Positions 22,846 to 64,000 of a stretch of 64,000 bases of DNA are shown piece by piece (the first letter of the stretch is position 1; every line of letters begins with the position of its first letter). The translations under genes and the position numbers were made by a program. Source of the stretch: Vermamoeba vermiformis (lineage: Eukaryota); contig JBEWZL010000119.1 of assembly GCA_045837725.1 (NCBI GenBank), positions 1 through 64,000 of the forward strand, in the 5' to 3' direction. The notes beneath the pieces are model-generated. The model made no database searches and had not been told where the DNA came from. It worked only from the letters and a program-made list of their open reading frames with translations.

Positions 22846-25800
22846 TTACAAGAGAGAATAGACGGAGCTGATTGACCAGAAGAAGTACAAGTCAGTGATG
22901 CGCTGATTGCCTTCTTTCACTTTGCACATCATGCTGCCACGCAACAGTCGTTCTTCGCCCGTGCCAGGGTAGTCCCACAGTTGTCCTTTGTGCGTGCCAC
23001 GTGCCAGCCAGCGGATGAACACGTTGACGCCATCTGCGACCAGATCTTCAATGTAAAAGACCAGATCAGGAAATGCATTCTGTAGTTCTAATATGTGTTG
23101 CTTGACTGCATCGCGGCCTTGATGCACCGCACCGGCCAGTGAACTGCCGTACACGAGACAGTCCTCGGTGAACAAATCTTGCAGCTCTGAGGAACCGAGT
23201 TAAATAACAGCACGCTACAATTATGACTCCTGAACTTACGATCAAATCGGCGTTGATTGAGCACTTCATTCAAAAATCTCGCGACAATGGTCTTGCGAGC
23301 ACGTACGTCAGGTCGGTCACGGCGCGAGGGCACTGTGCGACCAGAGGCAGGCATGCGCGGTCGTTGTCGCAGTGGGTTCTCAAGCACCGTGTCTGCGCGT
23401 CGTGCGGGCAGTGGAATGAAGAGCTTGAGTTTGGAGGGATAGACGAACAGATTGGTGAGCGACTTCTTCACCAGACCGAACAAGAAGCGTCGCAGCTGCG
23501 GCAACATGCCGAGACGAGTGTTGCGTCCGACCACCGTGATGAGGAAGTCGAATTCAATGTCTGGCGGGGCCACGAAACAGATCTCCATGCGCGTGTTCAC
23601 TTCTGGCGGGAATCTGAAGTGCCACTGCATGTCGCGTCAGTACAAATGTGCGAGTGACACGTGTCACTTACCGTGCCAATGCACTTCTCGATGGACACGC
23701 TGACTTCGAGGGGAATGACAGCGGTCATGGGCTTGGGCCAGTTGACGTAGAACTCGCACGCAGCCGTGAGTCCAAAGCCCTTTTCGTACGTGACCAGTGC
23801 CTCGCCCACCACCTCGTCTGGCGTGCTCGTCGGCATGAAGCGCAGATTGTGGAATTTGAAGAACTGCTCGCCAAAGTCAAAGTTCTTGAGCACCACAGGG
23901 CCCTGATCGATCCGCTGTTAACGGCTGTGTGAGCCATATATGGAGCTACTTACCATAAATGTGCGCTTGGGAATCTTTTCGAACTGATCGCGAATCTTGG
24001 TCTTAATCTCCTCCAAAAATATCTGACAGGTCTGCATGTCGCGGAATATGCGGCCCAAAAACACGTTCAACCAATCACCGCCCGCGCCTGATGTCGCTTC
24101 AGCCCCGACACGTTGCAGCGGCTCTATTTTTAGCTCTGTTGCTTTGCTTTCACTGATCACATCCTCGCCGTCCAAATCTTTCAATTCTTTTTCCAAGAAC
24201 TCGACTTGTGCCTCTTGCAAATCATCACGTGACTCGCTGCTCTCAGTGCTCGCGAGAACTGCATCCGAATCACGTGTTGAGACTGGCAATGCGCGTGCTG
24301 ATTGGCTGACAACGCCTGGCACTGAATCGAGCAAGCCGATCTTCGAGTGCAGCGGCAGATTGGGCACTGAACCCGTCAAATTCTTTTCCCTAATTAGGCA
24401 ATGCCTTATTAATCCAGTCTTCACAGTGCCAGACTGGGTGTTTGCACTTACTTTTTGAGGCCGTTGACAGCATCGACCTTGTCCGAGGACTCAGACTTGC
24501 TGTCCTCATCGTCTGACTTGAGACTGGTCTCGTCGTCCGAGTCACTCACCTCGGTGACAGCTGTCAACATGGCACTCTCGCTGTCAGAGTCGACGTCCTG
24601 ATCCGCACCGTTCTTCGAGTCCCTGCGCTCTTCCACTGTGGCCACACCGCGTGACTGCAGTGCACCGACCCACATGTCAAGCATTGCTTTTGTGGCTGCT
24701 TTGAGCTGATATTTCCTTTTTTGGGCATCCTTTTTCTGTAACAAATCGGGATCAGTATTGATTCGTTCAGTGAAAATCGAGTGCATTACCCCCACTGGAT
24801 CTTGTTGCGAGTCAGGTGACACAGTGACGTGCGGACTGGTCACGTGATTGCTGTGCGTGACGGGAATTTCCACGCTGAAAGTCTTCTTCTTGGTGCGACT
24901 CTTGCGCACTTTGGCTGCAGTGAGATCGATGACACCGAGGGGCAGCGGATCATTGCCGAGCGGTGCAGTCTTGAAGTACTTGAGCTTGTTGCCCTCGAGC
25001 ACAAACCACAGCTTCTCTTTGTTGCTGCTGCCAGGGCGCGGTGAGGTCTTGTCGCGCTTCATCTCCAGCCAGCCCTTCATCGCCATGTTCACATCGTGAT
25101 GCTTCTTGCGCGCACTCAGCGAGCCTGTCTCCGAGGCAAAGGACTCCTCTTCACTAATGGACGGTTCAGTGAACGGTGCGTCGCTGTTGACGCTGTCACG
25201 TCGTGCGCTGAGTGATCGCGCGCTGTCGCGGCTGGTGAGTGAGCGCGCAGAATTGGTCTGCAGCGTGTCCTGCTTGTTGCTCGCACTGCTGGCCGCGAGA
25301 TCACTGACGAATGAGAGCGAGGTCGATGTGGCAGCACGTGACATGGCGAGCGAGGCACTGGAACTCTCTGACTCGCGCACACTCGACTCGGACTGTTCGC
25401 CGCTGTGTTCTTCTTTCTTCTGACGCTTCTCTTCGCGCTTGCGCTCTTTCTTCTCGCGCTCTTCACGCTTCTTCTCGGCCATGCGCTGACGGCGATCTTC
25501 TTTGTCTTTTTTCCTAATAAGGCAAGTCAGTCACTCGCCACCGGTGGTCAGTCAGAGCTGGCACTTACTTGCGCTCTTCGCGTTCTTTGCGCCGCTCTTC
25601 TTTGTCTTTGTCGTCTTTGTCCTTGTCCTTGTCACGCGCCCGCGCTTCTTTTTCGCGCTTTTTGTCGCGCTTGCTCTTGACGGAGAGCGGCAAGTCGCTG
25701 TTGAAATCTACCAGGGTCAATTGCAAGCGCAACTCACCCTGCGACTTGACTTTGCCTTGTTTGGTGCTGGCAACACCCTGAAAAGGCAAGTACAAATCTT

Positions 25801-26773
25801 TGGGGTGGTCTTTCACCAACTCTGCGAGGGACACTGAAATTTCACCCTGACGAGGACAGCGCACTTAGTCACGTGACATGCGCGCTAAAAATAGCAGCAA
25901 TGATACGTACGAGTGGTTCTTTGGGCTTGTCACCGTCAAACAGCTGCACTTCGAGCTTGTCAGCCTGCGCGTCCTCCACCATCAACACGAAGCTCTCACC
26001 CCACTGCAACAAGCGCTGTCAGTCACTGCATCACGTGCTCCACACACGTGCATCACGCGATCACGTGACGGTGTTGGGCATCATCGACCAGGGCTACTTA
26101 CCTTGGGTGTCAAAGTATTCAATAGCGTGCGTGTCTTCACGGTCTGGTCGTTCAATTTTATCTTCAAGAATGGATCTGGCATGCCTGATAATAGTACCGC
26201 ATTAATATAGTGCTTCGTTCAGTGCTGCGCTGACTGGAATTCTGAATCCAAATCCGTTGACGGACCGGAGCAAATAAAATCTCAAAGCTGCGTTACAGTC
26301 GACCAGTAATAATGTTTTGTGAATTATATAGCAAATATTGTTGCTTTGGAATTTTTAAAAATCAAAAATAATAGCACAAAGTCTTCGTATTAATTAAATT
26401 ACCGTTGTTATCGGCTGCTACAATTCCAGAGGCTTCAAATACTTCACATATTAACTATAAACATGCAAATAATCGTTAGGATCAAATTCCGACAGAGTAT
26501 CTTTACGGGCGCAGACGTTGATCGGCTTACCTTGCGCTGTTTGCTGTCTTGCAAAATAGTCGCTGAGGCTGCTGACCCAACAGTGGGGGGCAGCTTAATT
26601 ATTACTGGTGCTTGTTTGGGCAAGTTCTTCGCGCCTAAGTCCGGGAAGGTTGCAATCTGCCGTTCAATCTTGCGTGTTTTGTCGTTAAGGAACCAGATGA
26701 GCAACGTGCCAACACCAACGACCCCACATATCATACCCGATATGAATAGGGTTACTGCAAATACGAAGCCCAT
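22846..26773 (-). CDS. Membrane contact-site protein: N-terminal TM - C2 - PH - SMP (TULIP) - SnoaL-like/NTF2-fold domain
   Basis: TM MGFVFAVTLF..; C2 PDPFLKIKL..WGESF..GEISVSLAEL..GELRLQL; PH KGWLEMK..WFVLEGNKLKYFK..MWVGAL; SMP DWLNVFLGRIF..NFDFG..LFVYP; C-terminal AFPDLVFYIEDLVADG..RWLARGTHKG..PGTG. Confidence 0.8.
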
Positions 26774-27771
26774 GGCTAGTGCGTTGTTCTGTGTTGCATC
26801 GTCACGGATTTCAATTCGTTTGTAATTTTTACGGCAGTTCACTTCGCACACAACACAATCTTAGTCAAAGAATGGTCGTGATTCTCCTCCGAATGGTCAT
26901 ATGACTGGCTAAACGTTTAGCCACGTCAGACAATCGCAGGCTAAGAGTATTTCATTGAAAATCATTTTGTACTCGGAAGCGGCGTTAGATCCGACAAGTT
27001 TTGAATTCGACGTTTATTTCGAGTCTTTACGGAATTCTTTAGGCCATATTATTAATTCGATGATACTATTTCAGTCAGCGCGATCCAGAGCGGGCCGTTG
27101 AGTACGAAAATGGATGCAATCTTTATATTTGTCAATTCTCAAGGAACCGAATGCAGCAGGAACAGAACGTTGATGATAACACCACTGAGTTAATATAGCC
27201 AAACAATAGTTAGAGCACTCCGCCAATAAAAGAAGACACCAATATTAATCGCAGATAGGCACCCTGGGAGTGCCCGCACCGTTTTGATTAGTTCGTGAAA
27301 CAAACAAAAACACGGACATGGCCACAGCTCAGCACTGCGGCACTATATTATATAAGTTTGTGGTGCGCTCATTATCAATTTAAGGTGCCGAGTCAGATCG
27401 AGCGCCGGATTTTTCTGTCTATTTTGCTTAAAAAAATTGAATTTAAGGAAAGACAATCAATTTTGGGTGCAACCGCTTTAGTCACACCAGCGAAAATTAA
27501 TTAAAATATTAAAGAAGCCCTCCCTAAGCACTAGTTTTCCGTCTTCATTTGTGGTGCTCCTCAAAAATAAATGTTTGGGCGCAAAGTCAACGTCAATCAG
27601 CGTCGGGAGTTAGAAATTTGGTAGAACGTATCAGCTATTCTATGACGTTTTGTAATTCACAAAAGTGGTGATTCAAAGACCAAATTTTACGGTAACTATT
27701 GTTTGGCTATATTATTTATTTTACAAGGGTTTATTTACAATTAACGCTTCGTAATACGAGCAGATACGTTC

Positions 27772-29007: not shown

Positions 29008-32000
29008 TTAGAAGCCGAATTCACTGGGCTTGTGCTTGCCCTCGCCGAACAATTCGTTCCAGCGATGCAGCTCGGCAATGGAAAGTGATTTGTCCGAGAC
29101 CGTGGGCTTGACTTCATTCAGCGCGGCGAGGAAGTCGGCGTGGTTGAGTGGTCGCAAGTACTCCGAGCCCACTGCACCAGTGGCGCTGTTGTTGCCCTCG
29201 TTCTGACGCAGATCCGACATGAACTTGCGCACGGCTTGGTACGAGGCCGCTACACAGAGGGCCTTGAGATCACTGCCTGAATAGCCCTGTGTCTTGCTCG
29301 CGATCTCAGTCAAGTCGACATCCGCTGCGAGCTCTTCGTGCTGCAGTACTTTTTGCAAGATCTGCACGCGCGCAGCTTGATCGGGCAGATCCACCAACAA
29401 ACGACGCGAGAGACGACGCAGCACGGCATCATCGAGATCGAAGGGCCTGTTCGTAGCGGCCATCACGAGCACCTTGTTGCCCGAAGCAGACTTGAGTCCG
29501 TCCCAGTGCGCCATGAACTCGTTCTTCATGCGACGCGAGGCCTCGTGTTCAAAGCCACCGCGCGCCGAGAGCAGCGAGTCTACTTCGTCGATGAATATGA
29601 TCGAGGGGGACAGCTTGCGCGCGAGTGAGAACAGCCCTGAGACGTACTTCTCAGCATCGCCGTACCACTTGGAGGTGAGCGAGGACATGCTGATGTTGAT
29701 GAAGGTCGCGTGGGACTCTTTGGCCACGGCCTTGGCGAGCATGGTCTTGCCGGTGCCGGGGGGACCGAACAGCAAGATGCCACTCGAGGCACGGCGCAAG
29801 GTACCGCGCGAGAACAGCACGGGGTGTGTCATGGGCAGGATGGCGAGTTCGTGCAGCGCTTCTTTGACCTTGGGCAGCGCACCAATGTCGTTGAATGTCA
29901 CGTCAATCTCGTGCGGATGAACGACAGCGGCGAGCAAGTTCTGTTCGTACTCGGTGAGATCGGACGATTTGATCTTCTTCGCCACGGGGTCTGCTGTTTG
30001 CAGGCGCGCGAACACGTGTGCGGCGTGTGAGATGGACTCGCTGGAGAGTGGCACGGGCTGCTTGTTGTTGTGACTGCGCGTCAGTTCTTTGACGAGCTTG
30101 TGCGTCATGGCGTGGTGATTCATCGCCCAGGACACGACCAGCTCGAGTTCTTTTTGCGTCAGACGCTAAACATAGTGTCAGTGAGCGATGACAGGTGTCA
30201 AAGTGCGATCAGTGTCACGTACTCGTTCAGTGAGAATGTCATTCGCAATGCCGTCAATGACTTGAATGTTGTTCTTGTCGAATATGCTCTGCAGACGCAC
30301 AATGTTGCGCATGGGAATGTAGCTCTTGTGATCGTTCTCCAACATGGTCTTCCACTGCTCTTGCTGCACGACAATAAGAAGGTTAGTGCGCGCTAATCAA
30401 TACGAACTAATGCTGAGCAGTCACGTGCCTCGTCTACATTGCGCGGCGGTGAAATGTCAATGGGGCTCGTGGACATGTCGCGCACTATTTGCTGCACTTG
30501 TTTGGCATTCTGTTGCGAGGCCATCAGAGCTGCAAATGGATCGTCCATCACCGCATCTTTCTTTGCAGATCCGCCCTGACGGAAGAGCGGGAATATCGCT
30601 GCTTGCACTTCACCTTCTTTTTTGGTCTTTTCTTCTTGTTGTTTGATCGATGACACTGCACGCAAGTCAGTATTTGACACGTGTCACTCTCCGCACATCA
30701 CTACGTACCGACAAACACGACGGGCAGTGTGTTGCGCTGATGATACCAAGCGGTGTTTTTGATGGCAGGCAAGAGCTGCTTGTACACGAGGGGACTGACA
30801 TTGCGAATGAACACCACGGCGGGTGTGCGGGCCTCTATGCTGCGTGCTTGTTCGCGTGTCAGCAGCGTGAACAGCGCTCGACTGAGTGGTGCGGGTTAGT
30901 ATTTGACACGTGTCACAGGCACTGAACATCACTTACACGGCGAGTGTGGCCTCGTCAGATTGCGAGCGTTGTTGTGAGCGACGAATCAAGCGATCAAAGT
31001 ACGCAGCTTCATCTTGATCTGCGCGCTCATCGTCGAATTCGTCCTCCTCGTCCTCGTCTTCGTCTTTGCGCGCACTCTGCTTGCGCTCATCGTCCTCCGC
31101 ATCGTCGTGCTTGTGGCGCTCTTGCAGCTGGGCCAGTGCTTCAAACAGTCCGCCCTGTCCGCCCAAGTCCTTGGCGTCGTGCTGCTCTTTGAGATCCAAG
31201 CGCTCCACGTCAAAGTCCACAAACACGGCGTTGTGGTGCTTCGCCAGTGCTTTGCACAGCTGTTCTTGGTACAGCTCGGTGCCGCGCGGACCGAACAGAC
31301 TGATGACGGGCTTGTTGATGGCGCTGTACTGCCGCTTGACGAGCAGTTCGGGCTGTTGCAGTGCCACGTGACTGCTGTGTATCAGCGCGCTCTGCAGGGA
31401 CTCGTGCAGCGGATAGGGGAAGCTGTGGAAGGAGACGGTGATGTCCTTGGCACTGGTGGTGAGTTGCAGCAGTGTCTGCGTGTATTGTTTGAGCGCGCTC
31501 TGTTCGTGCATGGACAGCGGGGGAGGCACTTGCGCCCCACGTCCCCCACTGCCACCAAACTTGTTGTACAGCGAGGGCATGCGCTTGCGGAGCCTGAAGC
31601 GGTGTTAGTGTGCATGCGTGGCAGTGACACTCAACACAGCACCCATGTGCGCGGTACTTACGTGCGCTTGATTGGAGCACGTGACTCGAGTGTGACAGGC
31701 TGATCTGTGATCGAGACTGCATTGGCTGTGTCTGAGAATCGGGTGAGGACTTGGTGTTGCGCTGCACATCGCATTAAATACGTACTAGTTTGTTTGTCGG
31801 ACTTCTTCAACAGCCACAGACTCGTTGTCAGTGTTCGTTGCTCCATCCGCTGAAAAATTTCGTGGTTAGCAAGCAAAATTTTCTCAATATTAATAACATA
31901 ATATATATGATATGTATTAACAATAATAATGGATGGCGATAATATTACAAATTATTTGTAAATAGAAAATTAATTTTGGATCAGCTTACTGGCAAGGGGC

Positions 32001-34128: not shown

Positions 34129-36259
34129 ATGAGTAAATCTCCATCACGCACTGTGCCTCAAGCATGCTTTTTGTGTCTGGTAGGCGCATATACTATTTGC
34201 ATATTCATAGGCACTATCGGCACTTATTTCTCGAGAATACAAAATGATTCGCTGCGCTAATTGCAGATCCAGCAATCGATTCAATTTGGTCCAATATGCC
34301 ATGCCATATAACACTGCAGATTAATAACGAATTTTGACCGGTTTTTTCTCAATTTACAGAAAGAAGGAGGCGAATGCGATCTGCAGCGACCGTGTGGACG
34401 GTGCAAGGGCCTGAATGTGCCGCACATGTGTTTCGGCGTGGAACTCAATCAGAAAGGACCGCACCAGAGCAGCGCGAGCACCACTAGCACCACTCCTAAG
34501 GACGACAAGCTCGGACCCTACGGCATCAACAAGAAACGCAAGCGAGGTACGTGTTGAGCTGTTGGACGTTGCAGCGCACGATTATACCACGCATTTAATA
34601 TGCTATTCTCACTTGTTGCTCCAAATTGAGTGATTTTACTGCTCGATCCAACAAATTTGAAATTGAATGGTGCCATAACTGTAACGGCGATTATTAACAA
34701 AGCAATATTAACGAGCACCGTCGCGGCTATTAATATAGATACTAACGACGTATATTGCAGCGGATTTGAGCGTTGAAATACAGACCTACGGCAACATGAC
34801 GCCGCAGAGTCCGACCAACAACTCGATCAGCGCGCCACCGCCCATTGGACCGGGCTTTGAGACTAAGGAAGATATGATGAAGATCAACGTCTTTCTCATG
34901 CAAGAAATACGCAAGATTAAGCAAGATCAGCTGCGGATGCAAGACGAAGTGAGCTACTTGCGCCACCAGAACGACGTGCTGATCGACAAGCTGAACAAAC
35001 TCTCCGTCTCAGGCCTCAACAATCTGCCGCCACCCACGCCCAATCCTGCACTCCCTGCTGGCACACAGCCCGCTCCGAGCAGCGCGGCCACACCGAGCAG
35101 TCGCGTGGAGGGGTCGATGGCGCAGATGCTGGCCACTGACCGCGCGATGGTGGTGTTCGATCTGATCAAGAGCCCCGCGATTGTACTCACTGCCAACGAG
35201 CACTTCTGTCAACTGTTCGGCTACAAGCTCGAAGAAGTGATTGGCATGCCCTGGAAGAAGTTCATTCACCCCGACTACCTCGAGCGCACCACCGCCATTC
35301 TGCGACAGAAGAACTTGCAAGCGGCGATTCAATTCACGCAAGTGTACCGCAACAGCGAGGGCATGACCTTTGTGGCCCTCGACACGCACTCGTTCTTCTT
35401 CGGCAATCACGGCACACCGCGCGCTGATCTCGTCACCGTGCAGCCCTTGCAACCCTCGCTGCAGACTGCACTGCCCTCACCGGCCTCGCGTCACTACTGG
35501 CCCGTGTCTGGCTCCACGCAGGGCACGCTCGCTGGTCAACCGCCGAGTGCGCTGCCCAATGCGAGTGGTCAAAGCGTGCCCCCGCAGCAACAGATGCAAG
35601 CACCGCAAACAGCGCAGCCAGTCAGCGGTCCATTCGGCATTCCCATCGACGTCAATGCCTACAACGCGCAGGGCATGACGCACAGTGGCCATCAGTCGCA
35701 CGAGCAGCACGAAAGCGAGGCGCAGAAGAGACCAGTCGCAGCACCGCAGTCCAATCCTCCGCGCGGCACTCAGAACACCGCGTCCATCGAGCCCATGTCG
35801 CCGCAGATCACCGAACACATTGGCAGCACCGCGAACATGACCATCACTAGCACGCAAGAGATTTTGGACGACGAGCCGCACGACAACTACGTCGGATCAA
35901 TGCACGGTCACGGACACATGAACGGACACATGACTCACAGTCACGTGCCTGTCACTCCGCAGATGTCTGGACACATGGCACACGCACAGAGCGCGCAGAA
36001 CAGTCACGTGCCTGTTTCACCGTCCCCCGTGCCACTCTCACCCAATGTCTTCGCACAGAGTGATCGCGCTATTTATGGCAATGGCATGTTCCCCTCGATG
36101 GGCGCATACGACGCCACGACTGCTGGCTACATGCCATCACCTTATATGTACAGTGCCAGTCCCAATCCTGGCAATGACCCGCACGTGCAAGGCGAGTCAC
36201 TAGAATCACTGGAGGGTCTGGATCAGGACGACGAAATTATCTCGCACTTCTTCAGGTAA
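34129..36259 (+). CDS. Zn(II)2Cys6 binuclear cluster + coiled coil + PAS domain transcription factor (Ert1/Rds2/Gsm1-like architecture)
   Basis: Spliced ACFLC-LKEGGE-CDLQRPCGRC-KGLNVPHM-C; NLS KKRKR; PAS ANEHFCQLFGYKLEEVIG..FIHPDY; acidic C-terminus. Confidence 0.8.
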
Positions 36260-48664: not shown

Positions 48665-50688
48665 ATGTCGTTCAGTGTTTATATTGACGACAAAGAGAAT
48701 CTTGTCAATTCACCCGGACCACTAGCTCCACGCAGCCCCACTAAATTTCGAGCAGATGTATCACCAAAGAAGAAGCTTTTTTTCTCACCTAGTAACAGTG
48801 GATTATCACCGCTACTCCCTACTAAGAAGAGAGCGCTGTCTCCTCATATCAAGAGCCCGATCAACAGAACTCTTAGTCCTTCCAAAGTTTATCGCTCTAC
48901 AACTCCCGTGAAACGAACACTTGAGGTAGCTTCACCTAATAAGAGCGCTAGTGTCATAGCAGAACATGTTCCCACGAACAATCAAGATGAATCCATTATT
49001 TCAGAGTATTCCTATACCTCATTGTACGATAGATATGGCTTTCTAGTATCTGATCAGCGATGTACCGAGCTGCAGTAAGTAATACATCACTATAGTAGCG
49101 AATTGGTGCCTAATTAATCGAAATTTCTAGCAGCCCAGCAACTGAGCACGACGAAATGTTCTGGCGCGAGATGCTTAACAATTGGGACGTGTACTGGCGA
49201 GCACCGGTACCTGGACCTGCATTGCAGAACAACACGTTCTTTGGTGCACTTTGTAGCAGTCCAATTCCGGATCAATTGCGTCTAACCGTTTGGCAAAAGA
49301 TATTGAACACTGCGCAAGTACAGCAAAACATCGCGCAAAAATTGAACAAAGCAGTAAATGAGTCATACGCACATCTAGTAGCTCTTCCCGAGAATGAATG
49401 GTGCAATCAAATTCGTCTGGATCTGCATCGTACCTTTGCTACACATCGATTGTTTTTACAAGAGATCGGGTAAGTACACTGACATGCCATCCTACATAGT
49501 ATTCTAAACAATATCTAGGCAAGAGAAGATGTATCGTATTCTCAAAGCCTATTCAGAGTGGAACACTTCGCTCGGCTATTGTCAGGTGCGTAATGCAGTC
49601 CAGTGCAGAGTGTGTAGCTGATTGGTCAATCAATAGGGTCTTTCATTTATAGTCGCAGGCCTGATGGTTGCACTCACTCTCGACGAAGAAACACTCTTCT
49701 ACGTGCTGGTGGCACTGCTCGATCAGTTGGATCTCAACAAGTACTTTGAACCTGGCATGCAAGCCCTGGTAGATGACACGCGCAAGCTGTCGCGCATATT
49801 TGAAGTGACCAATCCGGAGCTGGCCCAATCGATTCGCGAGCAAGGAGTAGATATGATCATGTTCACTTCGCGCTGGTACTTGACGCTGTTCACTGACCTG
49901 CCCGAGTGGAGTCACGTGCTGCGCTTGTGGGATGTGATCGTCTATCTGTAAGTCATTCGCTCGCATCGTTATTGTACCGATTCATCGTGTGACTGATCCT
50001 TCGTGCGCGCAGAGGTGTACCAGCAGTGAACGGCATTGCACTCGCCATGCTGCAGCTCAGTCAACGCGAGCTCGTGTCACGTGATTCGATTGAACTCACC
50101 GTGCCGTTCTTGCTCAATCTGCAGTCCTCCAATCTCAAGTTCGACAAGATTGCTGCACTGCTCGCTTCATATGATCTCCCCGCACTCGAAGCTCAAGCAT
50201 TGACACGTGTCAATCCCCCACCTCAACGCAAACGCAAAGCCAGTGAAATTTCCAAAGACACGCCGCGCCCTCGAGGACGTGCAGCCAGCGTCCAATCACG
50301 TGACACGCCGCGTCCACTGAACAAGTCGAGTGGTGGGCTGTTCGATCGCTTGGAACTGTTTTGGGACCGACTCACCACGCCGAACAAGCGCCGTCGATTG
50401 ACGAGCAGCGAGGGCAGCAAGGACTACGCGCGCTTGGACAGCACTCCTGCACGTGCTCGCAACGACTTGAGTGTCAACAACACCCCAGCACGTGATCACG
50501 TGACATTTGATCAGGAAGAGCGTCAGGCACTCATCTCATTCACCACGCCGCAGAAACGTCGCGATGAACAGCAGATGCGCAGTGCACACAAGACGAGTGC
50601 GCGCAAGTCACGTGACACACCGCAGCATTCAGAGAACGACAGTCCCGTGCGACCTGCACTCGAAATGAAGAGCTTCACGCGACTGTGA
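48665..50688 (+). CDS. TBC-domain Rab GTPase-activating protein
   Basis: YDRYGF, IPDQLR..W, QIRLDLHRTF, GYCQG (intron-split), FTSRWYLTLF..LRLWD. Confidence 0.9.
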
Positions 50689-50944
50689 AGAATTGCGGTT
50701 ATTTTTGGACATTTCTATTTATAGTCATCTCATGTGACAGCTCAATCAAGTTTGCAGCTGTTATCATCGAGGTCCATTGTATTATAGTCACTGAGTGTAT
50801 TGTTGTATTAAAAAAATTGATTTCTGCACGGTATAGTGCCACACGACAGATTTCCTAATATAGAAAGTGCGCGCATTCAGTGACTGACATTCAGTGAAAG
50901 GAATTATATTACAAGAGAGGGTGACATTACACTGCACAGCGCGA

Positions 50945-51580
50945 CTAATACTGCGTGATGTCGTCGAATCCAGTCTCCATGTTCATGCCGCGGTCCAACA
51001 TGATCTTGCGCTTCATCTTGGCCTGCTCCTCTTTGACGCGCTTCTCCTCATTGGCCAGCTGTTCAATCTCCGCCACACTCACTTGCGTCATCTTGTTGAA
51101 CGCGGCGTGCTCTTTGTCGTCGTCCTGTCAGCGCGGTGAGTGGCAGCTACACGCAGCAGTACTCGCAGCACTTACGATCTCGCCGAGCAGCACGACATTC
51201 TCGCCGCGAATGATGAATAGGCCCAGTCGCTTCTCACCCCACTTGTCACCCACGATAATGCGCTCGAAGGTGTTCTCCAGCACCACATTCGCTGTGGTTG
51301 CGTGTTAGTAGGCAGGGATGGCGTGAGATAAATACAGAGAATATTATTTGAATTTTTTAGAATATTGTTAAAAATTATTACCGAATTGGTCAAATGATCT
51401 GAGGACGCCAACGATTTTTCTGCCATCTCGCAGTACTACTAATAGCCTCTCTATTTGATAGACATATTATATAAATATTTATCGCAATGGAGTGCATTTT
51501 AATATCTTACTATCGACCTCTTCTATCAAGCTTGTTGTAGCAGTGTGTAAAAATGATGTTCCTAATAGCCCTTCTGTCAT
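50945..51580 (-). CDS. LSM1: Sm-like protein LSm1
   Basis: Spliced [59 protein letters not shown]. Confidence 0.9.
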
Positions 51581-51693
51581 ATTTATATGATTATTATTAT
51601 TCTTGGTTATTGTTGTCAATAACGCGCAATAGATCTTATCAAAATCAACTTTAGTTCGCTTATTTACAAATATTTCAAACAAACAATGTATTA

Positions 51694-53662
51694 CTATTTT
51701 GAAGACTTTTTGGTCTTCTTACTTGCGACCTTCTTTTTCGCTTTCTTCGGCTGAGAGCTCTTCTCTTCGAGCTGTGGATCTGGTAACGCGCGTTCAGTAG
51801 CAGTGAAGCCCAGCAGTTCCTGTTCGTGGACTTCTCGCGACAGTTGTTCAGAATGTGGCATGAGATTCTTTGCACTGAACTCGAGCTCCGATTCTGCGCC
51901 GTGTACCACCTCCTTCAAATGTTCGGCCAGATCTTCTAACTCCAGACCTCCTTCTTTCGCTGATAGAGCCCATAATGTGAGATGTGCAAGGTCTGAGCGC
52001 TCCTTTAGCTTCGCTCTGAATGCGCGCAGATGTTTCGATGCCTCAGGCAGATCCATCTTGTTCGCAATCACGAGCTTGATCTGCTTGCTGAGCCCTGGTC
52101 GATAGTGCTCCAGCTCGCTGCACAACACGACAAAGTCTTGCCACGGCGAACGAGACTCGCTGCCTGCCATATCGAGCACAACAGCGAGGGTCTTGGCGCG
52201 TGTCACGTGTCGCAAGAATTCCATGCCGAGCCCGCGATTGAGGTGCGCAGCTTCAATCAGCCCTGGTAGATCTGCCACGCGCACTTGACTGCCTGTAGGA
52301 TCGCGGTACATCACCGTGCCGAGCTGCGGGGCCAGGGTCGTGAAGGGATACGGCGCTATTTTTGGCGTGGCACGTGTCAATCGTTGCAGTAGTGTCGATT
52401 TGCCCGCATTAGGAAAGCCAATTAATCCGACATCGGCGATCAGATTCAACTCCACGACAAAGCTGCAACGATGAACTGCTGTCAGTAACGAACGATAACA
52501 ATCTGTGTTTGACACGTGTCAATGCGCGTACCTCTTCGTCTCGCCCAACTGACCACGTGTCATGGTCTCCGGTGAGCGGTTAGTGCTCGAGGCAAAGTGT
52601 GCATTGCCCAGTCCTCCGCGACCTCCGCGACACGCGAGATAAAAATCACCTTCCTTTTCGAGCAATGTGCCCTGGCCGAGTCGAATCACGTGCTTGTCTT
52701 CCGTTGTCAACTTGCGCGTGACAGTCTTGTTGCCACGTGACTCCACTGCGCGCTCCTCTTGTGCCACCAAGTCACTGACACGTGTCAATTTGCCATCAGC
52801 CCAAATATAGTCATGCCCTGGTGGATATTGCTTCAGCAGCGACAAGTCATTCAAGTCACGTGCCCAGTCCTCCAGTGGTGCCGGTCTCAGCACGAGCTCG
52901 TCCTCCGACTCCTCCGCATTGTTCCGCTTGACATATTCGGTAATCAGCGTGCCCGGAGGTACTCCGATGCGCAGATCTGCACCGTTCTTGCCGCGTCTGT
53001 TGCTCGCTGCACCGTTCTCACCGCGCGCTGCTGTCAATTGCTGCGCTGTCAACAGTCCACCGAGGTCAGTGAGCTGACTCTGCACTATAAATAGCACATT
53101 GCCACCACGTCCCCCGTCCCCGCCATTCGGTGCTCCCACGCGCTTGTGGCGCTGGCGGTCAAATGACACGCAGCCGTGGCCTCCACTGCCTGCACGGACT
53201 CGTTAGTCATACTACTAGACACTATATCGCATCACTATGCACTATACTATGCCCTATACTACACACGTACCAGACACCAGAGTGATGCGCACTTTGTCCA
53301 CGATCTTCTTCTTGCTGGATGCAGCGCCCTGTGCATTGTCTTGCGTGCCTACTGATGTGCGCTCGAGATGCTGTTTCTGGAGACATATATAGTCGTGTTA
53401 ATACTGCATCAGTCACCGCTGTGAGTTCACTGCTGGATCTGCTGGTCGATCAACTTACCACTCGATCAAAGCCCAATTTATTCAACGTAGCTTCTATTTG
53501 ATCGTACATGGCCTCGCGCTCTGGCTCCAGTGGCGGTGCTGCCTCGTCGTGGGGCTTGTGGCTGTACGATGCGCGCTGCACGAACAACGTGCTCACCGCG
53601 GATCTGCTTCGCGTAACAGAGCGCGTTAAGCGTGCACTATGATTGATGAGTGCCCGCAGCAT
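51694..53662 (-). CDS. Mitochondrial Obg-family GTPase (MTG2/GTPBP5-like)
   Basis: Transit-peptide-like N-terminus, GGDGGRGG Obg fold, ADVGLIGFPNAGKST, YPFTT, DLPG, NKMD. Confidence 0.9.
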
Positions 53663-53827
53663 TAATATTACAGAGGTATATTACAACACTGGATCTGTGT
53701 TGCTTGCGCGGAATAAAAGGGTAGAAATGTTTTTTTCACAGCTGTGAAATTTAACTTGTAAATTGTTGTCGTCAACCACAATACTTATTAATTAGATATT
53801 AATATCAGCCCTATTAATAAGTGCAAT

Positions 53828-54442
53828 ATGGCGAGCTGGACTGTTGAAGAGAAACAAATTCCCGAACAACATCTGTTGAGTATTCGTCTCACCACCAAAG
53901 AGGACCAAGTACGTATTCATACGACCAGCTGTTTAAAGGATATGAAGCTAGTATAGCAATTTAACGCTTATTATTCAGCTTTCAGAATTATTTTTGAAAT
54001 TTAATTTTTGTACGCAGCGTTTAAATTCAAATACTAACACACCGTGAAGGTTGGATCAATTACCTCTGCTTCATTTATCAAAATGATGGTCTATTTGGAA
54101 GAGAAACAAGCCAAGACGCTGTTATCAGGCCGACCGTTCAGCCGCATCCACTCCACCACCGACGAGACCGTGGATTTGGAGCTCTGCATGCCTTTGTCTG
54201 CTGCTAGCGTGCCAGCTCGCGGAGAAATCAAAGTTGAACACGAGGCAGCACACACAGCAGCTACAGTGTTGGTGCAGGGCTCGTACAATCAACTGGACGA
54301 CGCCACCGCGTTCTTGATCCAATGGGCGAAAGAACACAGCAAACAGAGCGCTGGACCTGTGAAGACAGTGTATTTGGTCGGACCTGCTGAGTCTAAGAAC
54401 ATTGCGGACTTCAGGACCGAGCTGCAATTGCCCCTAAAATAA
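53828..54442 (+). CDS. GyrI-like small-molecule-binding domain protein
   Basis: MASWTVEEKQIPEQHLLSIR + intron 53909-54049 + GRPF..DLELCMP..GSYNQL..W..VYLVGP..FRTELQLPL. Confidence 0.75.
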
Positions 54443-55120
54443 TGAGGGCGTGCCAGTCAATGAAGCTAATAAACTTGTAATTATTAGAATGTTTGCTGCG
54501 AACCAGGCAAGAGTGTCTGGACGTGATTTTCTGTTATCAGACATTTGGACTCGCAAAGACTGACTCTGATACTTTGTAAATTTGCAGAACTGTGTCAATG
54601 GATAACCTCTCCATGGTACTTGCAAGCACTTTTATTCTGTATACAGAATTGCATGTATACAACTAAGGTAACTGATCCAAGTAGTCTCCACGACCTTCCA
54701 AACTTAAGTTCAATCAAAAGTGGACTACTGCTGCCCATAACCTGTAGACACTGTTTCAGTTTTCGTATTGGTATAGTGACAAATTGAATTGTTTGAGTAA
54801 CTGTTACAGTCCCTGAGTAACAAAAGGATCAAAGCATCAGTCAGTATCACGACAATATCATTTTGCAGGATGGCCTCTGTTCAATATGCTGTATCATAGC
54901 CATGCTACCAAGATGCATTGAAACCAATGCAATTGTTGTGTACAGAACTTGAAGGCAGCGTCCAGTTAGGCATCTGGGGCTAGCTGGAAGGTGGAAATGT
55001 TGCAAATGAAGGTAACAAAGTTTTGAGATGCCATTTCCAACTCATTACTGTATGGCGCTGTGGGCACAAATTGGATCTGGATCTGCCTTAGCAACAGGTC
55101 AGCTGGCTGACGATCCAAGT

Positions 55121-56196
55121 GATTTTAACACAATTGCCATGTTATTATTAAGCTATTTCTTATATAAAAAGGATTTGCCACCAGCTGGACAAGTTACAAA
55201 AATTTTCATACTATATGGCGGACGTCCCGTCCGCCAAAAATTTTTCGTCCGTCCGTGGACATTGCGTCCGTCCGAGGTCGCTGCGTCCGCTGATGTTAGT
55301 AATTGACCAACTTATACCAAACTTTGCCATTAGCATTAGTGGACCCAAGAAGCACTACTATTGGCATCAGGAGGCTTTGGGCTAAACGCCAGAGGCTGAA
55401 AATGGCAATGTTCTGCAAAGAACTTAAGTACTAGAACTTTGTTCTATTGGCTGCAATACCATTGAAACTTTGGAAACTCCTAGACCTATCACTATCTAAC
55501 AAGAAAATATAAGTAATCATCAAAGATATTGTAGTGGCAGCAAATTGTAAATTTTCAGCATTAAGTATGAACCCACCCACCAGCACATGTTTGGTACAGG
55601 ACAACTATACGTATTTTATGCAATCCTGAACTTTGGCTACAATACATAGTCACCTAGCTATGAATTTTTTTTTGAATCATCTATCCTTTTTTATGTTGTA
55701 ACTTTGTCCAGTATGGTGGCAGACCTTGTTATAATGAAGGGATATGCTTAATCATATCCATGGCATATAGAAATCTTGTTAAAATCTTCATACTATATGA
55801 TGTATGGTCGGCGGACGCGCGGTCCGTGGCGGACGTCCAATTTTTGCCGGACGGGACGTCTACGCAGTTTGTATCTTTTTTCTTTTTTTTTTTTTTTTTT
55901 TTTTTCTATGTGGTCGGCAGACACACGGTCCGTGGTGGACCGGACATGCAAACTCAATATGTTGTGTTCAGTACGTTGCCATCTCACAATCACTACAATC
56001 TTGATGATTCCAACCTCCACTTTGGGTGTGCTAGTACTAGCTGTGCCAACGTGGTATTGCAGCAATAAGAACAAAGGGGTGGAAGTTCTTTGCAGAACAA
56101 TCCCAATTTCAGCCTCCAGCACCTAGCCCAAAGCCTCCTGAGCAATGGTACTCTTCTTGAGCCCAGTAGTGCCAATTGCAAAGTTCAGTATAGGGG
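55121..56196. repeat. Composite degenerate repeat cluster with three inverted module pairs, a 13-bp direct repeat and a poly-T tract (probable non-autonomous TE relics)
   Basis: 55121-55202 ~ revcomp 55696-55786; 55217-55275 ~ revcomp 55808-55860; 55311-55540 ~ revcomp 55988-56196; TTCATACTATATG at 55205 and 55787. Confidence 0.8.
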
Positions 56197-58853: not shown

Positions 58854-61800
58854 ATGAACAAGAGGACACGTGCGCAGAAAGAGAAGAATAAATACGCCGA
58901 GCTCCATCGGTTGATTAGACCACATGTGGACTCGTTCAATTACTTTTTGGATGAGGGCCTTCAGCAAGCCGTTGCAGATCTCGATCCAGTTGAAGTGACG
59001 AGTAGTGATGGAAAATCATTAACATGTATCCTTTTTTATAGATATTATTTATAGCCCATTCACCTGTCATTAATAATTTGCTTTTTTATTTTTCTTTGAC
59101 CGATCAAATCCAGTTTGGATCGAGGAGTGCACTATTGGTGTTCCGTCTAAAAAAACATTGGATGATAAATTATTTCCTAATGAGGTATGTACGAAAATAA
59201 ATTACTATTTTCGATTTCATGCGAGTTGGATCTGGATCTTCAATTTAGATCGGATCGTTCTCAGTAATTTCCGCGCAAATTAGCCCTATTGTCCGCCATT
59301 ATTACTCACCACTCTCGCAGTGTCGCCAAGCCTATCTGACCTATGGTGGCAGCATGCACGTCAAGATCTGTCGCCAGTACGGCGGTGGTCAGAGCAGCAG
59401 CACGCTGCAGAAGTACATTGGTCGCATGCCCATCATGGTGCGGTCCAAGCGCTGTTCACTCGGTGCACTCGGCGCCACTGGGGGCACGGCGACCATGCAG
59501 CGCCACGGCGAGGACCCCGCAGAGATGGGCGGCTACTTCATCATCAACGGCAACGAGAAGGTGATTCGCATTCTCGCAGCGCAGCGCCGCAACTATCCCC
59601 TCGCCCTCAAGCGCGATCACTATCAGAACAGCGGCAAGGGCTTCACGCCCTACGCACTCTCCATCCGCTGCTGCAGACCCGATCAGAGCTCCGTCTCGCT
59701 CTCCCTGCACGCACTCAACAACGGCGACTGTTCGATTCGATTCAGCATGCGCAAGCAACAGTACTTCTTGCCCGTCGTGGCGGTGATGCGCGCACTGATC
59801 GACACCACTGATCGCGAGATTTACGAGCGGATCGTGCAGCAAGATGTGGACAACACATTCATCACGGACAGAGTGGAGAGCATGCTGCGCGAGTCACACA
59901 AAGAGGGCATATACAGTCGCGAGCAGTGCTTGGCATTCATTGGCAGTCGATTCCGCACTGCCCTCGACAACGTGCCCGAGCGCTGGACGGATGTGCAGAT
60001 CGGCGAGCACCTGTTGAAGAAATACGTGCTGGTGCATCTGACGAACAACCAGGACAAGTTCAATCTGCTCGTATTTATGATCCGCAAGCTCTACGCACTG
60101 GTGAGCGGTGATTGCGCCGAAGACAACCCGGATGCGCCCAACACGCAAGAACTGCTGCTGCCGGGACACTTGATGCTGATGACACTCAAAGAGAAGCTGC
60201 AGGAGTGGCTCGGCAACATCAAAGCAGTGATTGCCAAGGATCTGCGCCAGGGCAAGGCAGTGAATATACACGACGAGACGTACTTCAAGAACAGCTTGAA
60301 CAAGACCTTCGATGTCGGCAGCAAGCTCGAGTACTTCCTCAGCACGGGCAATCTCAAGTCACCCACGGGACTCGATCTCAAACAGGCCACTGGCTTCTCC
60401 ATCGTTGCGGACAGACTCAACTTCCTGCGCTTCTTGTCGCACTTCAGATCCATTCACCGCGGTCAGTTCTTCACTGAAATGCGCACCACACAGGTACGCA
60501 AGCTGTTGCCTGAGGCGTGGGGCTTTGTCTGTCCCGTGCACACCCCTGACGGCGGGCCCTGCGGTCTGTTGAATCACTTGGCACACACCTGCCACGTCAC
60601 CAACACTGTCTACGGCGCACAACTCGCCCTCGAGCGGCACGTGATCACTGCGGGACCACTGCTGCCCGCTGCACACCCGCATCACCCTGGTGGCACGCAC
60701 GTGCCGGTGCTGCTCGACGGAAAGTTCCTGGGCTCCGTGGCCCTGACACGTGCACGACACTTTGTGGAGACACTGCGCCGCTTCAAGCTGGAGAACTCCA
60801 CGCCCAACTACCACGAGGCTGTGGAGCGCATGATGCAGAAGCTCGCCGCCAACACTGTGAGCAGCAATCCCGTGCCGCCAGACATGGAGATCAGTTACGT
60901 GTCCCCCGACAGTCGCCAGTACGCGTGCATCTATCTCAGCACGGCCCCCACGCGCATGATGCGTCCAGTGCTGCAGCTGGAGAGTGGCAAGGTGGAGTGG
61001 ATCGGCACCCTCGAACAGCTCTACCTGCGCATAGCCCTGCACGACGAACAAGTGCTCGGCGGCTACAGTCACCAGGAGATCATGCCCACCAACATCTTGA
61101 GTGTCGTGGCCAATCTCACGCCCTTCTCGGACTTCAATCAGTCACCGCGCAACATGTACCAGTGTCAGATGGGCAAGCAGACCATGGGCACGCCTTGCTA
61201 CGCCTACACGCACCGCACCGACAACAAGCTGTACCGCATTCAAACACCGCAAGCACCGATTGTGCGCACCAGTGCCCAGGACCGCTACTGCTTCGACGAG
61301 TACGCGCACGGCACCAATGCAGTGGTGGCAGTCATCTCCTACACGGGCTACGACATGGAGGACGCGATGATCATCAACAAGGGCGCGTATGATCGTGGAT
61401 TCAAGCACGGCACCATCTACAAGAGTCAAGTGATCGATGTGACGCAAGAGGGCGACAAGAGCGAGGGCCTGCAGCAGTACTTCCACAACTGCATCGAGGG
61501 CACCGCAGCGCTGTTCGAGCCCAAGTTGGAGGAGGACGGACTGCCCGCCCCCGGCACCAAGCTGCAGAAAGGCGATCCCTTCTACTGCGTGTGGGACGAG
61601 GCCAGCAAGCGCCACATTGTCACGCGCTACAAGTCGAGTGAGCCGTGCATTGTGGATCAAGTGCTCGTGCTCGGCATGGGTGACACGCCGCACCTGCCCT
61701 CCGACGAGCTGTCACGTGTCAGCAAGGTCGTCATCAAGCTGCGCTATCGTCGCACACCCTGGCGCGGTGACAAGTTCTCCTCGCGCCACGGACAGAAAGG

Positions 61801-62708
61801 TGTCATGTCGCAGCTCTGGCCGCAGGAGTCGATGCCGTTCAGTGAAATGGGCGGAATAACTCCCGACGTGATCATCAATCCCAACGCCTTCCCCTCGCGC
61901 ATGACAATCGGTATGTTGGTCGAGTCCATGGCTGGCAAGAGCGGCGCACTGCACGGGCTGTGGCAGAATGCCGATCCGTTCAGCTACAACAACCGTCCTG
62001 CCGAAGAACAGCACAACGATCCGACGCGCAGCAAGTTCACGGCTGTGGACTATTTTGGACAACAACTGCTCAAAGCGGGCTACAACTATTATGGCAATGA
62101 GCCCATGTACAGCGGAATAACTGGCGTGGAGTTCGAAGCGGACATTTACATCGGCGTGGTGTACTATCAGCGCTTGCGACACATGGTCGGTGACAAGTAT
62201 CAAGTGCGTGCCACTGGTCCTAAAAATAGACTCACGCGACAGCCCATCAAGGGTCGTAAGAAGGGTGGTGGCATTCGTTTCGGAGGTAATTATTCCGCAC
62301 TCATTCTTTATTCTTGACACGTGACTCACGGTGCTATTACCAGAAATGGAAAGAGACAGTTTGCTGGCACACGGCGCGTCGTTCCTGTTGCAAGACAGAC
62401 TGTTCATGTCCTCCGACTTCCACATTGCGCACGTGTGTCGCACGTGTGGCTCAGTGCTCAGCACTTCCATCTTTCAGAGCGTGAACAACAGTCTGCACGT
62501 CTCGGAGTACTCCGAAGCACGCCGCGCAGAGAACAAACAAGTGCTCTGTCGCTACTGTCTCGACGGCAATGTTGAAGCTGCCAACACGCAAGGTGCCACT
62601 TCCAAAAAAGGCAAGAATGTCACGCGCATCTCCATGCCATTCGTGTTCCGCTACCTGATCTCGGAGCTGGCAGCGATGAACATTCGCATTTGCGTCGACG
62701 TCGAATAA
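58854..62708 (+). CDS. RPA2: RNA polymerase I second-largest subunit
   Basis: HVDSFNYF, GGYFIINGNEK, RSIHRG.FF.EMRTT.VRKLLPE.WGF.CPVHTPDG, GDKFSSRHGQKG, PSRMTIG, GGIRFG|EMERD. Confidence 0.95.
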
Positions 62709-62849
62709 GAATTCAATTCTCGGGGCTATAAATAGCACCAAACCTGCGAAATACTTGTAATAAATTCACTTTTAACCTCTTATATTTATCAACTCTATTG
62801 CACAAACAACTACACAAGTGACGTCTCTGGTGACTAAGTACAACATGAA

Positions 62850-64000
62850 CTACTCCTGCTTGTCAGGCTTGCTGTCCACACTCTCCTCAGAGATGATCGC
62901 ATCTGCTCCGTTCGTGGTCGGATCCGCATCCACGGTGCCATTGAGTGCCAGACGCGCACGGTCCTCGTCCTTGAGGGTCTTGGGGTCCAAGTGGTCCCAG
63001 CGCCATATGAATGCCTCGGTGACGAACAAGACGTGCCTGCAGTGCGCGCTGAATGCACAGGCCCGCACACTCTGTCGCGCACGCTTGTGTTCGAGCGCGT
63101 GAATGCACTCGCCACTGCTCAGCTCGTAGATGTACACCACACCGGTCTTGGAGCCCACGGCGAGGTACTGGCCGTCACTGCTCACATCGAACAGCGTGCG
63201 CGCACCACTCGTCTCGCTCTTGCCCTTGACACGCAGCTCGCGCTCGATGCTGTCGTGCTGCCAGTCCCACACCACCACTCTGTTGTCCACCGACTTGCTC
63301 ACCACGCGTGCGTCGTCGAGACAGCGCAGACAATCTGACATGTGACACCTGTCAATCACGTGCGCGCAGTAACTACATGTAAGATGCACAGCTACGTACC
63401 GATCTCAGATTTGTGCGGAGATTTCAAAGCACGTGATTCAGTGACCTCCACGGGCACCGACAAATCACGTGTCACTTGCTCAGCTTTGCGCTTCTTCGAA
63501 TCACTTCCATTTAAGGCAGGTGCCACCACGTGATTCAAGTCCCAGATCTGCACCGCGCCCTGTTTGTTGGCGGTCAACAGCACAGTGCCGTGCGCTGCAG
63601 GTACAAAGGTCTGTGTGTGCGTCAGTGCGGAACAGTCAACAGCGCGACACGTACCATGGCCGTGGTGTGCGGGGCGTGCAACACAGCGATGCACGGATTC
63701 AAGTCGTCTTCGCGCTGCTCGTCACTCGTCTTGACGCGCTTGCTGGCACGCTGTTGGTACCACTCGCTGTCCGGTGCGAAGGCAGAGATCTCCCATATGC
63801 GCACTGTGCCGTCGCGCGAGTACGATGCGAGCAGTTGACGCGCGTACTTGGCTGCATTGTGCTCGTTCTGATCGCAGCTCGGCAACACTACATCTGTGCT
63901 GCACATCTGTTCAATCGTGTCGTCGTGACCTGTAGCGATGAGTACATGCTTTATCTTAATATAGTTAGCACTATTTACCGTGCAAGATGTGAAAAGCGCG
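62850..64000 (-). CDS. WD40 repeat protein, EED/ESC/FIE-like C-terminal blades; 5' end outside window
   Basis: DCLR..VVSKSVDNRVVVW, YLAVGSKTGVVYIYEL, LEHKRARQSVRACAFS..IWRWD parallels EED DCVRW..LSKSCEN..LALGNQVGK..IRQTSFS..IWRWD. Confidence 0.6.

Follow-up and report, generated by a model that had tools for sequence, protein, structure and literature searches.

CACGTG is over-represented in the genes of a 41-kb stretch of Vermamoeba vermiformis DNA: a possible protein-binding word kept by number rather than position

What keeps a six-letter palindrome well above its chance frequency in the exons and introns of unrelated genes? The question is raised by a stretch of 64,000 nucleotides (nt) from Vermamoeba vermiformis (contig JBEWZL010000119.1 of assembly GCA_045837725.1, positions 1 to 64,000, forward strand), here called the window, and the word concerned is CACGTG. 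An earlier note on this DNA had estimated about 65 sites after 23 kb and about 8 before; the window holds 76 sites, 8 of them before position 22,990 (6850-21246) and 68 after it (22,998-63,527). The five clusters that the note named all exist, at 24226-26062 (8 sites), 39578-39782 (5 sites), 50078-50609 (7 sites), 52204-52857 (8 sites) and 63357-63527 (4 sites). The window can be divided as follows:

22998-63532, no strand assigned: motif-rich domain, 68 CACGTG sites in ~41 kb of gene-dense DNA (from the site list and Markov nulls)
1-22877, no strand assigned: contrast region, 8 CACGTG sites, at background level, with ordinary cellular genes

None of 100 dinucleotide-preserving shuffles of the window reached 76 sites (mean 22.66 +/- 4.95, largest 36). 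From 22,990 to the end, the count on both strands was 136, against 36.7, 40.9, 66.7 and 104.3 expected under Markov models of orders 1 to 4; the corresponding figures for 1-22,989 were 16 observed against 10.4, 10.1, 10.2 and 9.8. Under the order-3 null CACGTG had the highest z score of all hexamers (8.5), and the leading 8-mers were extensions of it, CACGTGAC (34 vs 4.6 expected) and CACGTGTC (28 vs 4.1). Predicted coding sequence beyond 22.9 kb contained 51 sites, compared with 13.5 +/- 3.4 when codon order was shuffled and 22.5 +/- 3.2 when only synonymous codons were shuffled (300 shuffles each), with the caveat that under the synonymous null CACTGC (40 vs 11.6, z = 9.3) was as deviant as CACGTG. 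CACTGC falls outside the top 25 hexamers under the order-3 null, and its excess is treated here as an effect of codon context or repeated codons. The one-mismatch neighbours of CACGTG were not enriched in the window. As controls we used 80 eukaryotic loci (751,407 nt) fetched by a metagenome scan with the RNA polymerase I subunit 2 (Rpa2) of the window, all at 50% identity or less; they contained 127 CACGTG sites against 174 expected, with a median observed/expected ratio of 0.44 and a largest z of 1.2. The trait is therefore unusual.

The window is nuclear eukaryotic DNA with short spliceosomal introns; a typical intron is 45-65 nt long, starts with GTAAGT or GTACGT, has ACTGAC or ACTAAC as its branch site and ends in CAG. 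Genes were predicted with a seven-state, frame-aware hidden Markov model (HMM) trained on the window itself, introns were defined by GT..AG, frame continuity and a branch site, and the Rpa2 gene model was compared with homologues by tblastn. Some errors of the HMM are visible, for example at 52356-52553, where an intron is fused with an exon, and at site 23658, which was at first labelled coding. The model was trained mostly on genes rich in GC at third codon positions (GC3), and it under-calls genes in the first part of the window, missing for instance a kinase open reading frame (ORF) at 8753-9190. Pfam matches beyond 23 kb include a DOCK-family protein, a TFIIS_M/SPOC protein, Rpa2, DEAD-box helicases, an AAA ATPase, a PAS protein, an Obg-family GTPase and a WD40 protein; those before 23 kb include a Fapy-type glycosylase, a WSC/papain protease, a kinase, a PAP2 protein, a DEAD-box helicase, a LIM protein and an RGS protein. 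Rfam and ARAGORN found no RNA genes in the window.

Measured against a class-specific order-1 expectation, the second part of the window has 52 sites in predicted coding sequence (16.97 expected; observed/expected 3.06), 9 in short introns (1.02 expected; 8.85) and 7 in other DNA (2.59 expected; 2.70). Nine of the 28 introns predicted beyond 22.9 kb carry a site, in each case downstream of the 5' splice site and before the branch point, and two additional Rpa2 introns carry none; the note's claim of intronic sites was thus borne out. The 150-nt 5' flanks of predicted genes contain 7 sites in 3.5 kb (0.57 expected), which could lie upstream of transcription starts or within 5' untranslated regions (UTRs), and the 150-nt 3' flanks contain none in 3.3 kb (0.38 expected). 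Deeper intergenic DNA has 6 sites in 22 kb (3.38 expected), but four of these are in ORFs that the HMM did not call (Pfam matches just one of them, the kinase ORF) and one is in the first exon of Rpa2, so that unconstrained non-genic DNA is nearly without CACGTG. Site density is ~1.3-2.8 per kb across functionally unrelated genes; two genes exceed this, at 7.7 and 4.3 per kb. This gene-linked distribution, highest in 5' flanks and introns, lower in exons and nearly empty in non-genic DNA, suggests a function, or a process, linked to transcription units. The genes that carry most of the sites are:

24226-26067, minus strand: PH-domain protein gene; 8 sites, in exons, one intron (25870) and upstream
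30013-31683, minus strand: AAA-ATPase (Vps4-like) gene; 6 sites within and just upstream, with TGACACGTGTCA in each of two adjacent introns
35942-37176, no strand assigned: 5 sites, of which the PAS-domain gene (plus strand) has three, in its 3' part, and the next gene (minus strand) two, one of these intronic
39371-40066, minus strand: TFIIS_M/SPOC gene; 7 sites, of which 5 fall within a disordered acidic linker (HVT and SRD peptides)
43815-47773, minus strand: DOCK-family gene; 9 sites, in exons, in intron 47224-47278 and, in one case, 74 nt upstream of the predicted start
49913-50614, plus strand: gene of P0121, a disordered protein with no Pfam family; 8 sites in ~700 nt, the densest gene at 7.7 per kb
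52204-52862, minus strand: Obg-family GTPase gene (GTP1_OBG and MMR_HSR1 domains); 8 sites, one intronic
58867-62446, plus strand: Rpa2 gene; 8 sites, at codons 5-7, four in the main exon, one intronic and two in the last exon
63357-63532, minus strand: WD40-repeat gene; 4 sites, one intronic

Three sites of the PH-domain gene (26032, 26045 and 26062) lie 15-45 nt upstream of the first predicted coding base, and the intronic site of Rpa2 is within a 58-nt intron (62286-62343). The whole P0121 gene spans 49652-50685 on the plus strand.

With its flanks the word reads R-[T/G/A]-CACGTG-[A/C/T]-Y. The extended forms given in the earlier note are real: TCACGTGA occurs 14 times against 1.48 expected and the 12-nt palindrome TGACACGTGTCA 7 times against 0.00 expected, both exclusively beyond 23 kb, and these are the strongest forms. 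The pattern TGACANNTGTCA was found 11 times (0.31 expected), and GTCACGTGAC with at most one mismatch 25 times (2.78 expected). Predicted introns contain five of the seven exact TGACACGTGTCA copies and all three copies of the one-off variant TGACAGGTGTCA:

23655-23666, no strand assigned: exact TGACACGTGTCA, in intron 23625-23671
30675-30686, no strand assigned: exact TGACACGTGTCA, in intron 30656-30708
30904-30915, no strand assigned: exact TGACACGTGTCA, in intron 30882-30936
36853-36864, no strand assigned: exact TGACACGTGTCA, in intron 36830-36879
50201-50212, no strand assigned: exact TGACACGTGTCA, in predicted coding sequence, peptide LTRVN
52510-52521, no strand assigned: exact TGACACGTGTCA, in an Obg-gene intron that starts with GTACGCGCAT
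52776-52787, no strand assigned: exact TGACACGTGTCA, in predicted coding sequence of the Obg gene
30189-30200, no strand assigned: variant TGACAGGTGTCA, in a low-scoring predicted intron
47421-47432, minus strand: variant TGACAGGTGTCA, in intron 47395-47443
63343-63354, minus strand: variant TGACAGGTGTCA, in the intron that also contains site 63357

When 63 sites are oriented by the sense strand, their flanks are nearly mirror images of each other. Position -2 is G or A in 52 of them and the mirrored position +2 in 55; position -1 is T in 24, G in 21, A in 18 and C in none, and the mirrored +1 is T in 26, A in 14, G in 13 and C in 10. Full 8-nt palindromes make up 27 of the 63, against 18.2 expected for independent flanks. 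Such symmetric extended flanks suggest that duplex DNA is recognised by a putative symmetric dimer.

The word is also imprinted on codons and residues. Its 51 coding sites use frame 0 in 23 cases, frame 1 in 25 and frame 2 in 3; frame 2 would require Thr followed by Cys, Trp or a stop. The earlier note had staked its case on an enrichment that outlasts di- and trinucleotide-aware nulls and is spread over several reading frames, and the enrichment does persist under these and under codon-aware nulls, with no single frame accounting for it. The [STPA]-R-[VADEG] tripeptides of the second part are encoded as xCA-CGT-Gxx in 25 of 63 cases, where codon usage predicts 2.4; CGT makes up 0.20 of Arg codons, and 25 of the 100 CGT codons sit inside CACGTG. 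In frame 0, 23 of the 30 His-Val pairs are encoded by CACGTG against 17.2 expected, CAC being 0.90 of His codons and GTG 0.64 of Val codons. The peptides that the note had reported from the disordered TFIIS/SPOC linker can be read directly (DEHVTG, ELSRDAVSRDSS, KNHVTD and SEHVTG). In Rpa2, four of the six coding sites encode residues (HV, HV, TRA and SRV) limited to the one relative at 97% identity plus 0-2 of the other 119 homologues; apart from that relative, the homologues (fungi, Amoebozoa and other protists) are ~44-55% identical. At the SRV position 40 of 120 homologues have SEL and most others retain E, and at the other two coding sites the residues are common in the family. The use of two frames and introns, the synonymous bias and the replacement of conserved Rpa2 residues together support a pressure on the nucleotide sequence and not on the protein, as the note had proposed.

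Relatives were compared at the protein level. For P0121, 7 sites were compared across five orthologues (99, 90, 77 and 66% identity, and one partial), and the site-encoded residues were no better conserved than the rest: 20/20 at sites vs 198/200 elsewhere, 19/20 vs 178/198, 15/20 vs 157/194, 8/18 vs 137/199 and 6/12 vs 95/167. Even so, 8 motif-compatible peptides are present in the 66% relative, where shuffling predicts 2.44 (p = 0.001); most of them are at other places, an example being ISRDT where the window has ISKDT. Comparison of the TFIIS/SPOC protein with P0123 (a 68% relative) showed 6 of 7 site peptides kept, which is not significant at the local identity of ~78% estimated from the alignment. 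At the level of these protein alignments, the clade appears to maintain site density while positions turn over.

The first 23 kb differ sharply from the rest. Their 8 sites comprise 2 in coding sequence (2.58 expected), none in introns (0.22 expected) and 6 in other DNA (2.66 expected), and they include none of the 14 copies of TCACGTGA and none of the 11 of TGACANNTGTCA. Compatible tripeptides are encoded by CACGTG in 0 of 18 cases in the first part and 25 of 63 in the second (Fisher p = 0.0009, for a boundary picked after seeing the data). The two parts share the same intron signals. They differ in predicted coding share (~30% in 1-22877 vs 62% in 22878-64000), in the length of predicted introns (104-227 nt vs mostly 45-65 nt) and in GC3 (0.42-0.70 vs 0.58-0.83). 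A chimeric assembly was considered, and no evidence for one was found: the two parts have tetranucleotide signatures with a correlation of 0.81, and the best of 25 control loci reached 0.70 with the second part. Among non-coding halves, the tetranucleotide correlation is 0.51-0.64 across parts and 0.65-0.74 within parts. Regional GC-biased conversion was rejected as the cause of the contrast, the non-coding GC content of the parts being equal (0.409 and 0.402). The contrast argues against a uniform genome-wide process and also against a universal need of every gene for the word. The earlier note had likened the pattern to the highly iterated palindrome HIP1 of cyanobacteria; a uniform, neutral, genome-wide bias of that kind does not agree with a word that is near-absent from deep intergenic DNA and 3' flanks and at background in the first 23 kb. 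The adjoining 23 kb offer a built-in control for studies of selection or drive.

Our preferred reading, to which we give somewhat less than an even chance, is that CACGTG is a duplex-DNA site of a symmetric dimeric protein and is kept by number, not by position. The putative binder would most simply be an E-box-binding factor of the basic helix-loop-helix leucine zipper (bHLH-Zip) type, and both the symmetry of the flanks and the excess in 5' flanks are in keeping with a Cbf1/bHLH-type dimer, as far as sequence can indicate. The lineage would hold a high site density around gene starts and throughout gene bodies, the maintained quantity being the number of sites per gene. Since number and not position would be maintained, sites would gather where they cost least, in introns, then in disordered protein segments and then through synonymous codon choice, and the pressure is even so strong enough to alter residues that are conserved in other organisms. 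As to function, an expression-supporting or chromatin-organising intragenic element would be our guess; we infer both the binding and its effect.

A number of observations weigh against this proposal. Along genes of up to 5.7 kb the sites are not concentrated towards the 5' end (relative positions 0.03-0.96), and the word is at background in the genes of the first 23 kb. GC3 predicts site density, if weakly (Spearman 0.44, p = 0.046); as an explanation of density, GC3 or codon bias was rejected on account of this weakness and of two GC3-rich genes at 19.5-22.4 kb that have no site. The flanks are not fully symmetric on the sense strand, where C precedes the word in 0 of 63 cases and the mirrored G follows it (CACGTGG) 10 times, and CCACGT is depleted on the sense strand of predicted coding sequence in 22878-64000 (1 vs 10.7). 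Many other CC-containing hexamers are also depleted there under the synonymous-shuffle null. The one protein of the window with PAS domains (PAS_3 and PAS_9; 34404-36254, plus strand) has no HLH domain in the ORF examined and is not an evident bHLH-PAS candidate for binding CACGTG. In the literature searched, there was no precedent for a regulatory site at ~2 per kb through coding sequence, and the replacement of conserved residues, such as those at SRV in Rpa2, is a strained consequence of a weak regulatory benefit that drive accounts for more easily. All statistics come from one 64-kb window of the organism, and the gene and intron boundaries, drawn by our own HMM and splice rules without transcript support, are approximate.

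The most serious rival is a molecular drive in which biased repair or gene conversion, possibly linked to transcription or recombination, turns near-matches into CACGTG; in one version, a bound protein shields its allele from meiotic breaks, and the unbound allele is cut and converted to CACGTG. We regard drive as a real possibility, if on balance an unlikely one. It would explain the fixation of slightly harmful changes, such as the lineage-specific residues at four of six Rpa2 coding sites, and the use of the non-preferred codon CGT within xCA-CGT. Sites that turn over without extra conservation while density persists in the 66% relative also agree with it, as does the peak of the excess in introns, the least constrained transcribed DNA. 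Bacterial uptake sequences are likewise reported to co-evolve with proteomes (PMC2817400). On the other hand, deep intergenic DNA and 3' flanks, which are unconstrained in the former case, lack the word, so that drive would have to act at gene starts and in gene bodies alone, and the word is missing from the first 23 kb as well. The near-equal non-coding GC gives no sign of a regional difference in GC-biased conversion. The note had also suggested biased repair or methylation, and neither methylation-linked decay nor repair of the very-short-patch (VSP) type left a trace in the window: the observed/expected ratio of CpG lies between 0.93 and 1.2 in 15 of 16 bins, the exception being the first 4 kb at 0.76, with no sign of CpG decay driven by 5-methylcytosine, and CATGTG has an observed/expected ratio of 0.99 under order 3, its deficit being due only to the general deficit of CATG (0.61). 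The literature searched held no such eukaryotic case, and we know of no sequence-conversion drive of this kind in eukaryotes. The two leading readings can be combined, with a bound word gaining a transmission advantage. A further speculation, which we think unlikely and put forward with much reserve, is that the word is a eukaryotic counterpart of HIP1 or of uptake sequences, a palindrome with a bound protein that owes its spread among genes to a transmission bias and is off in some chromosomal domains. A bound allele that escapes meiotic breaks and converts the unbound one would be an example (a 'cold-spot drive', the reverse of the hotspot paradox); such a drive would be powerful enough to reshape codon usage and replace conserved residues throughout a clade, with the first 23 kb as a switched-off domain.

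It is improbable, in our judgement, that CACGUG is instead an element of pre-mRNA, bound by a protein or pairing with other copies in splicing, export or the recognition of the cell's own transcripts. The word does lie in DNA that is likely transcribed (possible 5' UTRs, exons and introns) and is nearly absent from DNA that is not, about one third of short introns carry it, always past the 5' splice site and ahead of the branch point, and there is the small sense-strand asymmetry at position -1. However, flanks that are mirror-symmetric to 10-12 nt suit a dimer on duplex DNA rather than a single-strand binder, and it is this symmetry that disfavours a role at the RNA level; 19 of the 28 introns lack the word; and the 3' flanks, which should include 3' UTRs, have no site, though few were expected. 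The word is also unlike the organism's splice signals, and a reading of it as a splice signal was rejected, only 13 of the 76 sites having a 5'-splice-site-like string within 30 nt. Relics of mobile elements, that is, footprints of miniature inverted-repeat transposable elements (MITEs), introners or transposons with the palindrome in their ends or core, could account for TATTTGACACGTGTCAC being common to two adjacent introns of one gene and for the intronic location of most exact 12-mers, but we consider them very improbable. Similarity between sites ends at ~12-17 nt, the best pair of flanks among all site pairs matches at 23 of 40 nt, where the maxima of 50 random position sets average 21.3 and reach 24, and the repeat families around sites end at ~12-19 nt; the sites are therefore not copies of mobile elements, and for the window a repeat, MITE or introner origin was rejected. 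No terminal repeats or target duplications surround the sites, most of which lie in coding sequence, in frame, via codon choice. Least credible of all is the idea that the word arises incidentally from composition, codon usage, protein motifs or Z-DNA-prone alternating sequence; we see next to no chance for it. The word does consist of common codons in frame 0 (CAC and GTG), and the number of sites per kb increases with GC, but the excess is left unexplained by every null and extends to two frames and introns; and alternating pyrimidine-purine hexamers other than CACGTG number 1552, against 1809 (order 1) or 1564 (order 3) expected. Protein-level, compositional, repeat and Z-DNA origins are thus excluded for the window.

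How does the word, taken as a protein-binding site kept by number, compare with known systems? None of the four closest has all of its features. The E-box or G-box bound by yeast Cbf1, USF, the MiT/TFE factors (the 'CLEAR' element, GTCACGTGAC) and Myc-Max has the same core, symmetric flanks and T or A beside the core, and the excess in promoter-proximal 5' flanks is a further likeness. Known sites of this class are promoter or enhancer elements of particular regulons, whereas in the window the word pervades unrelated genes, exons as well as introns, with ~2 sites per kb, and changes both codon choice and residues. bHLH-Zip factors favour T-flanked CACGTG, and to our knowledge no bHLH protein has a preference for the flanks of the mostly intronic form TGACACGTGTCA. 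GTCACGTGAC appears in papers concerning TFEB/TFE3 and Cbf1.

Short words that shape proteomes are known from bacteria, namely uptake sequences, HIP1 and Chi. HIP1 (GCGATCGC) is described as abundant in cyanobacteria and recognised by DNA methyltransferases, with its function still being worked out (PMC4390886, PMC13756078). Like HIP1, CACGTG is a short palindrome far above compositional expectation that also occurs within coding sequence. Unlike it, the word belongs to a eukaryote, is limited to gene starts and bodies rather than spread over coding and non-coding DNA alike, is missing from the neighbouring 23 kb and is found where CpG shows no decay. The uptake sequences of competent bacteria (uptake signal sequences and DNA uptake sequences, USS/DUS) are not known to be palindromic, and their drive is sequence-biased DNA uptake with recombination, for which we know of no counterpart in a eukaryote. 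They are nonetheless alike in being over-represented and, as reported, co-evolving with the proteome (PMC2817400). The word of the window likewise lies in several frames, is imprinted on the proteome and favours poorly conserved segments, yet overwrites conserved residues. The intron-mediated enhancement signal TTNGATYTG of Arabidopsis is reported to act from transcribed sequence, independently of splicing and within ~1 kb of the transcription start (PMC6760150). It shares with CACGTG its shortness and over-representation in transcribed DNA, but the sites of the window are spread evenly along genes instead of lying close to gene starts.

In the literature searched we found no eukaryote with a 6-12-nt palindrome at ~2 per kb in exons and introns that accounts for a quarter of the occurrences of one codon and displaces conserved residues. 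If the word is maintained by selection, it would represent a novel type of cis-code within genes, serving to mark or support them, with consequences for gene design, codon optimisation and annotation in the lineage. If drive is the true cause, this would be the first sequence-specific conversion drive of its kind in eukaryotes, and a natural system in which to gauge how far a force at the DNA level can push proteins from their optimum.

Transcripts were sought in three RNA runs of the same species label which, with one DNA run, were mapped to 35,001-55,000. The RNA runs gave 101, 70 and 164 mapped reads with a depth below 1 in most bins; most reads were 95-99% alike to the window and therefore come from a relative. 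No intron joints were found in this interval, and the runs yielded neither gene models nor an expression ranking. The sole read joint connects 36853 with 39572 on opposite strands (6 reads over the three RNA runs, short side 20 nt), and it is probably a mapping effect of the palindrome common to two motif sites, not a rearrangement.

Other words and repeats stand out in the window. GATCTG, the core of the plant signal TTNGATYTG, has 94 copies against 39.1 +/- 6.9 in shuffles, spread over both parts (for example at 9185, 21714, 22384, 28237, 38194, 44451, 44776, 52972, 57310 and 63543). Ten of these copies form the palindromic octamer CAGATCTG (1.74 expected), and for the related CAGATCCA the count is 21 where 2.76 would be expected; 18 of these copies lie beyond 22.9 kb, and no evident bias towards a strand or class is seen. 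The palindrome AGTACT has 20 sites in 22878-64000 against ~6 under order 1, a ~3-fold excess that may come from GTAAGT and ACTGAC, where these two intron signals adjoin each other. A perfect 22-nt inverted repeat (27191-27212 and 27693-27714), with arms 480 nt apart, lies in an intergenic gap. Nested inverted repeats, which look like a foldback or terminal-inverted-repeat element, occupy 55221-56141 in an AT-rich gap without CACGTG sites, and their arms are:

55367-55425 and 56083-56141: inverted-repeat arms, 59 nt, 86%
55221-55251 and 55830-55860: inverted-repeat arms, 31 nt, 87%
55437-55461 and 56052-56076: inverted-repeat arms, 25 nt, 88%

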